From: Eledone cirrhosa
Taxonomy: Eukaryota
Direction: 5' to 3'
Length of the DNA stretch: 64,000 nucleotides
Assembly (NCBI GenBank): GCA_964016885.1
Contig: OZ024750.1
Coordinates: 14,570,001 to 14,634,000 of the forward strand
Numbering within the stretch: position 1 is the stretch's first letter; the number at the start of each line of letters is the position of its first letter. The notes under the pieces are model-generated. The model was not told the origin of the DNA. It worked only from the letters and a program-made list of their open reading frames with translations, and did no database searches. Both the position numbers and the translations under genes were made by a program. Of this stretch, positions 12,701 through 52,900 are shown in pieces.

Positions 12701-15700
12701 CTTTCATCTTTACGGGGTCGATAAAATAAAGTACCAGTAATGCACTGGGTAATTGCTGGCCTTGTGCCAAAAGTAGAAACAATTATTATTATGTTATCAC
12801 ATGACCCTCTCTACCCTAACAGAGAAGAGAATAAATAGATATTGATACACACACATACACCCACACACACAAATTCTTGTTCATTTTGCCGATTGGATCA
12901 TTATTATTATAGTTGACATACCATGATAACACAAACCATGATAACACAAACCATGATATCACATACCATGATAACACATACCTTGATATAACATACCATG
13001 ATAACACATACCTTGATATCACATACCATGATAACACAGCATAACACAAACCATGATATCCCATACCATGATAACACAAACCATGATAACACAAACCATG
13101 ATATCACATACCATGATAACACATACCTTGATATCACATACCATGATAACACATAGCATAACACAAATCATGATATCCCATACCATGATAACACATACCT
13201 TGATATCACATACCATGATAACACATACCTTGATATCACATACCATGATAACACATAGCATAACACAAACCATGATATCCCATACCATGATAACACATAC
13301 CTTGATATCACATACCGTGATAACACATACCTTGATATCACATACCATGATGACACATACCTTGATATCACATACCATGATAACACATGATATAACACTT
13401 CATATTTAACAGGTTAACGGATCCTCCTATAAAGGAGGGACAATTGAAAACTCTGTAAAACAGTTGTTTACCTGTAAAAGTAAGACAAAATTCTGTTTGT
13501 CTTTTGGTTTCCCACCTCTGTATGCCACAGCTGGATATTCCCAGTCAATGTCTAAACCGTCTAAGTTGAATCGATTTAAGAACTGCAAAGCGCTCTGTAG
13601 AAACTCTTGTCTTGACCATGCAGTTGAAGCCATTGAACTAAATTTTCTGGCATTCGTACCCCAGCCTCCCACAGAGATCAGTACTTTTAGTCGTGGGTTT
13701 TGTCTTTTTAGACGGACTACCTCATTAATCCTTCAAATATAAAAATATAAGAATTAAAAATTGTGTTGGAGCTCTGAAATAGCGATGTATATATGAAAGT
13801 ACGTATTGTATATTTAAAAATATAAGGTATGTTTATTTTAAAACATTTTGAAGGCATTTCGCAAATAATTTAAGGTAACGACTATAGTCCTAGCTTCTTT
13901 GTTTTTGCTGAAGCTAAGTATGTGATTATAGTCTCTACTTTAAATTCATAGCGAACGGCCTTCAAAATGTTTTAAAATAAACATACAGTATATTATGAAA
14001 TATACAATGCGTACGTTCATAAGAATTAAAAATTCGAATGTTTGGAATATTAATTAAAAATATGAATTACCATGAGAGGTGATATCTATAATGTTTATTT
14101 TTATGTCAATAAGTAAACAATCTTAATTATAAAACGCAATCGAAAGTCTAACTTCTACTACGATACGACTTAATTGGTAGAGTTAGAGCTTTAACAAATT
14201 ATATGTTGTATCATATCCTTATTTTTATAATCGGGAAACTTTCGTATGATTGGACTTCAACTCAAAGTTTCTGGGAATAAAGTACAGACGCAGCTCAATT
14301 ACGGTGTGGATTCTAACGATACATACATATATATATATATATATATATATATATATATATATATATATATATATATATATATATATATATATATATATAT
14401 ATATATATATATATATATATATGAAAAAATATCGTTTGTTTACAAAAAAAAATATTAATATTAAAAAATTGGAAGGAGGTAAGTAGAGAAGTGAACCTAA
14501 ACATCGAGTGCTCGCCCGAGTCAACCCACAGTAACTCCGCGTTACACTCCCTGGATATATATATATATATCGGGCGAGCACTCGATGTTTAGGTTCACTT
14601 CTGTGTCGAGGTGTAGAGCTAGACAGAGTGTAATATAATAATACAAGGACGAATGGTTACTCATATATATATATATATATATATATATATATATATATAT
14701 ATATATATATATATATATATTGTTATACTTTGGGAGGGTCATGTTGCCAATAAGAAACACACGCACCAGTTGCTTTCACTTCAATTTAATTTAATATATA
14801 TTTATAAATTTACAAATTTATAAATTTCTGGTTGGTTGGTTGGTTCCACAACCAGATAGTTGTTTATATATATATAGTCATAGTTCTTTCGTCACACACT
14901 CTGTGACCTCTTCAGATAAAGAATCTTGCTAAACAAATTCAGAAACGAAATATCGTAAGACTATATATATATAAAGAACTATGACTATATATATATAAAC
15001 AACTATCTGGTTGTGGAACCAACCAACCAACCAGAAATTTATAAATTTGTAAATTTATAAATATATATTAAATTAAATTGAAGTGAAAGCAACTGGTGCG
15101 TGTGTTTCTTATTGGCAACATGACCCTCCCAAAGTATAACAATATCGGTTTCAACACACGATTTCAGATAAAGAATCTTGCTAAACAAATTCAGAAACGA
15201 AATATATATATATATATATATATATATATATATATATATATATAATATAAGATCAAAAGATGGTTAAAGGAGTTCCATGTATTTTATTATGCGCATTTCA
15301 AAAACAAACATCATCATGCAATAATATTTGTGTTTTCATCAGATAAAACAGGAGAACATGATATGAAGGCTAAAAAACACTTGTGGATAGTGCAGTTTTA
15401 AATCAACATATCAACATGTTGATTTAAAACTGCACTATCCACAAGTGTTTTTTAGCCTTCATATCATGTTCTCCTGTTTTATCTGATGAAAACACAAATA
15501 TTATTGCATGATGATGTTTGTTTTTGAAATGCGCATAATAAAATACATGGAACTCCTTTAACCATCTTTTGATCTTATATTATGCATACTCCAGTCCTAC
15601 AAACTGTAGAGTGCTTCTTATCCGATATCTGCATTGCTTTATTGTACTACAATAAAACTCACCTCCTACATATATATATTTATATATATATATATATATA

Positions 15701-49900: not shown

Positions 49901-52900
49901 TCGAAGACGATGAGCTCACCAGTCTGTTTGGTAGGACTTTCCGCCCGAGATCTATGGACAACTTCCAGAGGTCCCTGGCCTGGCAGTGCTACCGAGGAGC
50001 TCTACCGGTTCGTGACAAGATCTACAGGCACGGACGCCCCGGCAGGGATCCTTCCAAGAGGACGTGTCCAAGATGTGCGCAGGACATTGAAACAGTTCTG
50101 CACGCAATTGTACACTGCCCGGGCGTAAGCGACATGTGGAACTATGCAGAACAACTGCTGTCGCGTATGGGACAAATCCAGTTGACTGCCGAGTCCATAG
50201 TAAGGATCAAACCGCCAGCCTCTTTAAAAAACGAAAGAGAGGCGGTTTTCCTCTGTACGGTGGCTATGGTGAAAGAAGTTATATGTTGGACGAGGTTGAG
50301 AGGACTGAGGACAGATGCCTTTCTCTCCGGACAACAATTGATTCCCTTCTTTAAGTATCACTTTAGAAGGAGAATCAGGGTGGAAAGAGAGGCACTGCAC
50401 CCCAGTAAATTTACTGAAAGGTGGGTGAATGAAGCGAAAATGGCCCGAGTGATTGGACCTTCTCTGTTTATAAGCCTGTAGGTTGAGGAAGAGAGCAAAA
50501 GGAAGAAAGGAGCACTTTCACAACACACTCCTGGAGTTGAGGGTTGTTCTATCGACGGGGTATTAAACAACCCATTTGTGGCGCCTGCCCCCTATTGGGG
50601 ATTTCGATTGTTGTAATTGTTTGTTTTTATATTTTTTACACGACTGCATGTAAAATCCCCGGCATGTCTTTGTATTGTCCCCTTTTCTTCTGTGCCCTTG
50701 TGGCTAATAAAGAAATCTATCTATCTATCTATCTATATATCTATCTATCTATCTATCTATCTATCTATCTATATATTTATACTGTATATCATCATCATCA
50801 TCATCATCAACGTTTAACGTCCGTGTTCCACGCTTGCATGGGTTTGGACGGGGGTTTTCCCACTTGAAGCAAGAGTGATTGTCTTGCTCGCATAGGACTG
50901 TCGGCGGGTTTTCTACAGCTGGATGCCCTTCCTAACACCAACCACATTTACAGTGTGGGTCTGGGAGGTTTTTACCGTGTTGCCTACACGGCCACATTAC
51001 AGCGTGGACTGTGTGTTTTTTGTCGTGACACCTACACGATCTCATTTGTTTCGGCCTGGATGTTGTGGCACCAACATAACTTTACATTGAAAGGGGCGGT
51101 GTGGATGGGGTGGGGGTGGTGGGACGGGGGTGTGTTTTGTTAGAGATGCCTACTGACTGTAATAGGTTTTACTTTGTATTTAGGTAAGGCGGGTCTTCTC
51201 TATTACTGAGTACCGCCAAAGGTCTCGGTCCAGTGACATTGTCTTGGAGAGGTGTAAGCGTGTGAGGTCGGAATTTATCATGTCGTCCCAGGTTTTTCTG
51301 GGTCTGCCTACTCCGTGGCTACCGTCTATCTTTATTGCCCTGCACTTTGTTATACAGCTGTCGTCTTTCATGCGCATCACGTGACCATACCAATGTAGCC
51401 TTCTCTCGAGTAAACAACATCTGATCCCTCTTATTTCTAATTTTTTCCTTAGTTCGTTTATGCTTAGCCGTTCACGTATTACACATCCAGCGGAGCATGC
51501 AAGCTTCGTTCCTCTCTAGTCTGCGTATATCCTCTGCACACAATGCCCAGGTCTCACTGCCATGCAGCATTGCTGTTCGTATGCAGGCATCATACAGCCT
51601 GCCTTTCATTTTTAGAGAGAACCCTTTAGCGGCTAATAGTGGTATAAGCTCTCTGAACTTTTTCCATCCAGTTCTGACTCTAGCTACTGTACTTTCAGAG
51701 CACCCTCCCCCACTGCTGATTTTGTCACCCAGGTAACGGAAGCTGTCCACTATTTCTATAGAACCCTCTGCGCAATTGAAAGAGCTAGTATTTTGTGGGC
51801 ACTTGCTGCTACTTATTGCCCCAGAGCACCGGCCACATGTAAAATCTATGTTCTTAGTTAGCTTACCTGTGATCCCACTACATCTTTTATGCACCCATAC
51901 TTTGCATTTGGGACATAAAATGGAGTTTCTACCTATGCCTTTCCTACACACTGAGCATGGCCATTTCCCGGAAATATATATTTATATAATAAACAACATA
52001 AGGCAATTATTCCATTTACCAGTGGTTTCTTAAAAGCAAAAGATTTTGCTTTCAATCCTCAGAATGAAAAAAACTGGTCTCAGTGACCAGTTTTTTTCAT
52101 TCTGAGGATTGAAAGCAAAATCTTTTGCTTTTAAGAAACCACTGGTAAATGGAATAATTGCCTTATGTTGTTTATTACATAACTATTAAGCTCTGTTACC
52201 TACATAGAGCACTCTTTTTTCCTGGACTTTTCCGACGGAATTACTTCATTTACACACACACATATATATATATATATATAAATTTTGAGCATATGTTGGT
52301 TATATACCAACACCTCAGTATGCAGATTGGAGCACTCGACGAAGTGCGCAGGTTAGTTTGGTTACTCCGGAGTAATGTAAAATAAAAAAGTCAAATGTTT
52401 AAAATTTGGCTTTGTTTATTACTGCTATATATATTTCGGTGACAGCCATCTTTGGCTGTGACCTCTTCAGGCAGTCCGAATTAATGTGGTAGAGACGAGT
52501 ATACATGTTGTTGAGGTATACAAGGGCTTGTTTCAGGGGGGTACTAGGGGACAATACCCCCTCCCCCTTACACACACACACTTTTACAAACGTTTTTATT
52601 TTATTTTTTGTTTATTTGATATAATAAATTCTTTTTAAGCTTATTTTTTTTTTATATCTGAACTTCATTTGAATATATAAAATTTAAGTAGTGTAAAATT
52701 TTACTTATGTGATAAGGTCCAGAGAAGGCACCATAAGAAATGTATGCTCCTTTAAGCATCAACAATTGTTGGTTTGTCCCCCTCACATTTTTAAGGCAAA
52801 CAAGGCCTCTGTATATATGTATATATATATATGACTGATAAGTTTCAGAAAGCCAGTATAATTTCGACTGGTCAGCAGTAGCATTCTGGACATACCCTAC

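Follow-up and report, generated by a model that had tools for sequence, protein, structure and literature searches.

Hammerhead-bearing inserts at (TA)n tracts of the Eledone cirrhosa genome as probable ends of Penelope-like elements

Hammerhead-bearing inserts in the window

We analyzed a stretch of 64,000 nucleotides from Eledone cirrhosa (assembly GCA_964016885.1, contig OZ024750.1, positions 14,570,001 to 14,634,000 of the forward strand; hereafter the window) for small inserts that carry hammerhead ribozyme motifs next to (TA)n tracts, and for the relation of these inserts to Penelope-like elements (PLEs) and their pseudo long terminal repeats (pseudo-LTRs, pLTRs). The host genome measures 3.0 Gb, and the window is (TA)n-rich with a GC content of 35%. 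Most of the units in the window were head-to-head palindromes, a layout absent from the preliminary description of this DNA, which had been made from the letters alone; neither had it described the two fixed 3' ends, proximal and distal, at which the copies stop. The palindrome of family A (15237..15671) had hammerheads at 15342- and 15483+ in 173-nt arms that matched at 99%, the left arm reaching the proximal end and the right arm being tailed. Those of families B (23821..24285; hammerheads 23927- and 24096+, 189-nt arms) and H (51978..52252; hammerheads 52062- and 52102+, 102-nt arms, a stem III of 4 bp with a 1-nt loop) were likewise tailed on the right arm, as was that of family N (48241..48413), which was truncated inside the core. 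The insert of family D (24780..25288), with the U4C core CCGAAGA, combined a tailed minus arm (core 25026-) with an inverted arm (core 25254+) that stopped inside stem III at (TA)13. Family E was present as a compound insert (14717..15202), made up of a minus arm to the proximal end (14717-14915), an inverted tail piece (14912-14954) and a plus arm to the distal end (14973-15202), and as a tailed minus-strand stub (38226..38578, core 38479-) whose 5' end carried a short inverted piece. Three further stubs belonged to family O (38580..38826, plus strand; U3-A8 core at ~38645, stem I of 3 bp in this copy), family G (48444..48850, minus strand; tailed, core 48676-) and family I (52281..52520, minus strand; tailed, core 52470-). 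Several families lay side by side in one TA tract (14717-15740, 38226-38876, 48241-48850 and 51978-52520), which suggests that the TA flanks of one insertion draw the next.

The motifs were far more frequent than in shuffled DNA, as the preliminary description had implied. A first structural scan, which required the core and stems I, II and III, gave 9 matches in the window against a mean of 0.05 and a maximum of 1 in 40 block-wise (local) dinucleotide shuffles, and a refined descriptor that tolerated G-U pairs and one bulge gave 10 intact type I folds against a mean of 0.1. All 10 had the core CUGAnGA / GAAA / UH with three helices. The number of matches varied with the descriptor (9, 8, 10 and 10 in the window), since the stricter early versions lose helices that contain G-U pairs or bulges. 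We also scanned an unselected sample of 590 kb, consisting of 59 stretches of 10 kb at round coordinates (60 had been asked for and one was absent; two of the 59 lay 20-30 kb from the window), and found 37 motifs where 8 shuffles yielded 0-1; a wider descriptor raised the count to 48, with 0-1 in each of 6 shuffles. The earlier estimate of one unit per 4-7 kb held for the window only, the unselected DNA containing one motif per 12-16 kb; extrapolation from 37-48 motifs per 590 kb gives ~190,000-240,000 intact motifs per genome, with the two arms of an insert counted apart. The association with TA tracts was also confirmed: a (TA)6 lay downstream of 30/37 and 40/48 unselected motifs at a distance of no more than 300 nt, as compared to 19% of random positions. 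Stem III was often palindromic, in 8 of the 10 intact window motifs and in 24 of the 48 unselected ones. When the 58 motifs of the window and the unselected sample were grouped by sequence, they fell into 25 clusters, so the units share little primary sequence between families; the same was not true within families, and three pairs of window motifs were near-perfect inverted duplicates.

Six of the nine motifs listed earlier passed the helix test (C3 at 15483+, 24096+, 25026- with U4C, 48676-, 52102+ and 52470-), while three had a broken helix. Among the latter, 24429- kept its core with a stem I of only 2 bp, 47880+ kept its core with two G-U pairs in stem I, and 38479- had lost the first stem II pair in this copy, the family form passing the test. 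Five motifs were new (15342-, 23927-, 52062-, 58048- and the U3-A8 variant at ~38645+). The CUGAnGA..GAAA strings at 1231+, 19617+, 37780+ and 48819+ failed the helix test and were rejected as hammerheads. The hammerhead-constrained fold lay no more than 1.6 kcal/mol above the minimum in 9 of the 10 window motifs, and self-duplexes through stem III had energies of -3.2 to -11.1 kcal/mol. The hammerhead is predicted to fold, likely as a dimer through its palindromic stem III, and cleavage is a prediction. PLE hammerheads reportedly cleave as dimers, according to Luense and colleagues.

The Rfam hammerhead models, which had been proposed as a check, failed to detect any of these motifs: a search of the window with a threshold of E=10 listed none of the hammerhead families, and the best matches were microRNA (miRNA) hairpin models below the gathering score. 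These matches would fit the view that the palindromes are miniature inverted-repeat transposable elements (MITEs) or miRNA-like hairpins in which hammerhead cores arose by chance in AT-rich DNA. This view is refuted by the 0-1 motifs of the shuffled controls and by the parent elements described below, which encode a reverse transcriptase (RT); moreover, the arms are asymmetric and their centres variable. Palindromes of this type are prone to mis-annotation as MITEs or miRNA hairpins.

Families and their parent elements

To count copies, we took exact pattern matches across the genome, the two arms of one insert again being counted apart; reversed patterns, used as controls, gave 0 matches. The multicopy families expected from the preliminary description were found. 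Family N had 16,924 matches, E 15,730, A 15,179, O 10,520, G 4,937, H 3,927, D 2,110, I 2,072 and B 291, which amounts to 71,690 for the nine families. The strand counts of family N were uneven (9,493 versus 7,431), a hint of a tandem array of this family somewhere in the genome, and those of the other families were even.

Parents were sought by retrieving places with two exact matches 2-8 kb apart and reading them for open reading frames (ORFs). Eight of the nine families were traced in this way to ORFs for RT and GIY-YIG endonuclease, as had been anticipated, six of them Hydra-type (A, B, D, H, I and N) and two Neptune/Nematis-type (E and O). ORFs of 775-821 aa lay between hammerhead copies of family A, and ORFs of 832-858 aa between tandem copies of family D. 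Family N had a 758-aa ORF between tandem copies (locus L280), and family O a 770-aa ORF (loci L277/L278) in which RVT_1 and GIY-YIG scored above the Pfam cut-off. The parent ORF of family B (loci L160-L163) was found in a frameshifted form and as a 683-aa part, and those of families H (loci L157 and L287), I (L164 and L168) and E were in pieces. The tandem pLTR layout was present at loci L031, L032, L149-151, L160-161, L277 and L280, with a spacing of 3.7-4.4 kb in A, 4.2 kb in D and 6.0 kb in N, above the usual <3 kb of Hydra elements, and the pLTRs of the parent elements contained the hammerhead motif, which lies 40-230 nt inside the 3' end of each family. Asparagine-rich inserts separated the RT and the endonuclease in A and D (loci L149-L151 and L032-L033); such inserts have been described in rotifer PLEs (PMC3846280).

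The clades were assigned from protein motifs. The Hydra clade is defined by an RWK-like motif, DKT, a CxCx5C linker, the lack of CCHH, and CxxC and CxH near the C-terminus (PMC8557442, section 11). Aligned A, B and D proteins had RxRW, DKT, YRDD, CxCx5C, CxxC and CxH and no CCHH pair; by reading, the N and H ORFs had the same set, and family I was represented by an RT half with DKT. The proteins of A, B, D and I were 38-49% identical to one another and had no BLAST match to E. The ORF of family A had 37 homologues, often with PF26215, one of the matches being from Argonauta. Family A had been considered a Nematis element, which was dropped as the motif list in PMC8557442 fits Hydra. In Neptune and Nematis, the linker is CX2-5CxxC and the endonuclease has a CCHH finger (PMC8557442). 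The E and O ORFs resembled these clades in a DKG-like motif, YVDD/YLDD, a Cx4CxxC linker, two cysteines between the GIY- and YIG-like motifs, and (TA)n ends, and either clade would fit.

Since eight families continue into RT and GIY-YIG ORFs, most inserts appear to be 5'-truncated pLTR stubs and not retrozymes. On this basis and that of the ends described below, we put at about 90% the probability that at least nine Penelope-like families, each with a predicted type I hammerhead, left these inserts as ends truncated on the 5' side, their own RT and GIY-YIG endonuclease being the likely means of insertion into (TA)n. The interpretation offered in the preliminary description is supported. It had called the elements non-autonomous or heavily truncated; the second term applies to eight of the nine families, whereas the first, and with it the retrozyme label, fits family G at most. 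Family G had at locus L167 (1966-4570) a ~2.4-kb non-coding unit with internal repeats between two copies of the end region, a candidate non-autonomous Hydra derivative.

A rival view sees non-autonomous retrozymes in the units, with small hammerhead RNAs that form monomers or circles and rely on copying in trans. This family G unit lends itself to the view, as does the fact that most copies are short and non-coding; animal retrozymes have been proposed to derive from pLTRs (bioRxiv 10.64898/2026.07.22.740005). Non-LTR retrozymes are likewise short, non-coding, hammerhead-bearing and related to pLTRs (PMC7229834; bioRxiv 10.64898/2026.07.22.740005), but they are described as tandem monomers, whereas the units here are head-to-head stubs of coding elements. 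We consider this explanation very unlikely for the inserts as a whole: besides the coding parents, the 5' ends differ between copies, the window had no head-to-tail arrays of short units, and no inverted insertion had its junction at the cut site.

PLEs of this kind are already known. Hammerheads in PLEs, targeting of (TA)n, inverted copies and tails have been published, including for an Octopus Hydra element (PMC4209133, PMC8557442), and what is added here is scale, together with young families that have open ORFs. Among the Hydra elements that carry hammerheads and target (TA)n is Hydra-1_Obim of Octopus bimaculoides (Craig et al. 2021, PMC8557442), which family H resembles by eye in the start of its ORF and in the 4-bp/1-nt stem III. 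Besides the protein motifs, our Hydra-type families have in common with the clade that they insert into (TA)n, carry a hammerhead close to the 3' end, include inverted copies truncated on the 5' side and have a tail on one side only. They differ in that six or more families coexist with 10^2-10^4 exact matches each, in units of 3.7-6 kb as compared to <3 kb (a tendency in PMC8557442), in tails of ~60-165 nt as compared to 30-40, and in stems II of up to ~85 nt and a stem III of 6 nt that is mostly palindromic. Cervera and De la Pena (2014, PMC4209133) described minimal hammerheads in metazoan PLEs, with a type I core, a palindromic stem III, pairs on opposite strands and a U3-A8 variant. Ours agree in the core, in stem III, in U3-A8, in high diversity within one genome, in the predominance of truncated single copies and in dual opposite-strand motifs 100-700 bp apart. 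They differ in the U4C core of a young family with open ORFs and in number, 2,000-9,000 motifs per genome being reported there with other descriptors, against our extrapolated ~190,000-240,000. The window and its families supply natural hammerhead variants (U4C, U3-A8 and very long stem II). The words hammerhead and ribozyme were absent from the O. vulgaris repeat paper.

Insert ends and a possible route of insertion

We measured the ends of 329 arms and 80 inverted insertions from seven families (A, B, D, E, G, H and I), counting positions from hammerhead G12. Some of these loci had been picked for holding pairs, which inflates the frequency of pairs and leaves the class of end unaffected. 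Two fixed 3' end points downstream of the hammerhead accounted for 321 of the 329 arms. The proximal and distal ends lay at +65/+148 in A, +69/+156 in B, +59/+223 in D, +170/+229 in E, +65/+193 in G, +52/+116 in H and +60/+156 in I, and 292 of the 329 arms met (TA)4 or longer at the 3' end. Among the inverted insertions, 70 of 80 paired a distal with a proximal end, 1 had two distal ends, none had two proximal ends and 9 could not be classified. In 21 of the 80, the partner arm lay wholly 3' of the cut site, and in ~11 the two arms shared no sequence at all. The 5' ends clustered at -110 to -113 in A (27/70 short arms), -79 to -90 in E (17/34), -150 to -164 in I (13/23) and -119 to -132 in B (13/41); D and H had no clear peak. 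An RCUC..GAGY hairpin followed the proximal as well as the distal end in families A, B, D and G, and the proximal end in N and H; the end signals of G were of the Hydra type. The E and O copies examined had no visible hairpin of this kind, and the copy of I examined was without its tail. By eye, the 3' end of the coral element Hydra-2_Amil, printed in the supplement of PMC8557442, has a GCUC..GAGC hairpin after the hammerhead, and for this reason the signal may be conserved across phyla.

The predicted cut did not mark the ends of the inserts. None of the 80 inverted insertions had a junction within 3 nt of it, and although the patterns used to find many of the loci span the cut site, we rejected the hammerhead cut as the source of insert ends. 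Among 321 arms anchored upstream of the cut, most of which had been selected to continue, only the window arm at 25254+ ended inside stem III.

These ends point to the following route for the PLE stubs. The endonuclease would cut both strands of a TA tract, and the RNA would offer two fixed internal sites, at one of which each target 3' end would prime reverse transcription. The start sites of Hydra-type families would lie a few bases 5' of the small RCUC/GAGY hairpin. Both cDNAs would end prematurely, in many cases at a point particular to the family, and would then be joined. Priming from both target ends is suggested because 70 of the 80 inverted insertions pair one end of each kind, and the hammerhead, near the start sites as it is, likely rides along passively. 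Run-off at the transcription start may explain the clusters of 5' ends, which we offer as a weaker guess. In a stricter form, double priming would be obligate: both ends of the cut TA would copy one RNA, or a hammerhead-linked dimer, from two sites set by the hairpins in Hydra-type families, and the many short stubs would arise where copying runs off the RNA at a 5' end fixed within the pLTR. We hold this form to be an even bet; if true, it would explain the tail, the inversion and ~200,000 hammerheads without cleavage marking any end.

The same elements could instead form palindromes by self-priming, a single cDNA or an antisense template folding back with no priming from a second target end. 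Such a self-priming model has been published (PMC3846280), and it would account for nearly identical arms (1.4 mismatches per 110 nt within 16 A palindromes versus 5.1 between insertions) and for the concentration of family A centres at a hexamer, complementary to itself, that lies 110-113 nt upstream of G12. The ~11 of 80 insertions with non-overlapping arms are beyond its reach, because there the arms share no sequence, and fold-back alone does not predict the rule of one long and one short arm, which held in 70 of 71 resolved cases. We regard fold-back as a possible but rather unlikely source of the palindromes and lean modestly towards double priming over it.

Frangieh et al. (2024, PMC11167929) studied the Poseidon protein PAc of Anolis in vitro and found that it cuts and extends both strands from two internal start sites that bound the tail, with ribozyme cleavage dispensable for insertion and assisted by the protein. 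The double-priming route proposed here agrees with these results in all three respects, that is, two internal start sites delimiting the tail, extension of both strands and a dispensable cut, as far as an analogy from another clade goes; in the portions of PMC11167929 examined, neither the long/short pairing of inverted insertions nor hairpin signals are put to a test. Among the titles and abstract openings returned by a literature search, with few subscription papers among them, none dealt with a PLE mechanism of twin priming or inverted insertion. Completion of insertion is an unsolved step in PLEs, and young families with open ORFs provide thousands of junctions for statistics on it.

Several observations weigh against the reading of the inserts as PLE ends joined in this manner. 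Pfam did not recognise the A, B and D ORFs or the endonuclease piece of E, and the identification of A, B and D draws on motifs and on homologues carrying PF26215. No ORF was found in five loci of family G (L129/L130, L167, L292, L293 and L294), and no parent element was found for units C, F and J. The stability of the hammerhead monomers was unremarkable (z of ~0 to -1.7 in 9 of 10 window motifs), and forcing 48676- into the hammerhead fold costs 5.3 kcal/mol. Many loci were picked by patterns spanning the cut site, which hides copies that end at the cut, and target-site duplications are unreadable inside (TA)n. The near identity of arms could stem from conversion between them. Finally, the arm at 25254-25288 falls short of the predicted cut by ~3 nt and passes straight into (TA)13, possibly as a result of priming on a ribozyme-cut RNA end.

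Decayed units and other features of the window

The decayed or truncated motifs noted earlier at 4912, 14876, 26479, 35230/35370, 48305 and 58975 proved to be recognisable relatives of other copies. On the plus strand, a decayed stub related to family D (4600..4810) had a CUGAUGA core at 4718, a broken stem I and a (TA)n end, and matched locus L194 at 93% and relatives of D at 73-78%. It was followed by a decayed unit with a long stem II (4850..5040, plus strand; core at 4912 with G8A) that ended in (TA)26 and was 77% identical to 39442-39507, within an older palindrome of the long-stem-II group (39391..39705) whose cores were truncated or decayed. In a palindrome at 35150..35430, both arms had lost the CUGAnGA strand at the centre, the half GAAA-CGCGCG-UC being left. 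Two more plus-strand stubs had relatives among the retrieved loci: that at 26400..26596 (core 26479, G12 mutated) matched L062 and L165 at 89-90%, and that at 41150..41326 (core 41220, GAAA and stem III deleted), which ended in (TA)41, matched L171, L211 and L233 at 80-84%. Unit C (24305..24500, minus strand; core 24429) had a long stem II; its exact pattern matched only itself genome-wide, and no relative was present in the 1.3 Mb compared. The exact pattern of unit F (47800..48110, plus strand; core 47880, weak stem I) also matched only itself genome-wide, and its stem II was common to a decayed relative at 58880..59060 (plus strand, core 58975). A minus-strand unit at 57870..58062 had an intact-looking hammerhead (core 58048-) with an 85-nt stem II region.

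Exons resembling GH18 chitinases belonged to two genes on opposite strands (10170-10289 and 13466-13711, minus; 45690-45974 and 53572-53679, plus). The inserts at 47.8-52.5 kb are probably intronic, because the two plus-strand exons flank them. A T/V-rich repeat ORF (9279-10304) adjoined the first GH18 exon. A repeat of ~190 bp resembling a short interspersed element occurred at 923-1123 and at ~20 other places (2502, 4361, 6582, 17538, 22284, 30138, 42216 and 53348, among others), with 80-96% identity, and no hammerhead was seen in its copies in the window. In addition, the window contained fragments of non-PLE long interspersed elements (32459-33396, 49663-50481 and 51472-51981) with RVT_1, zf-RVT and a PHD-like finger, and a tandem array at 26758-29745 of 42 copies of a 71-bp unit with 97% matches.

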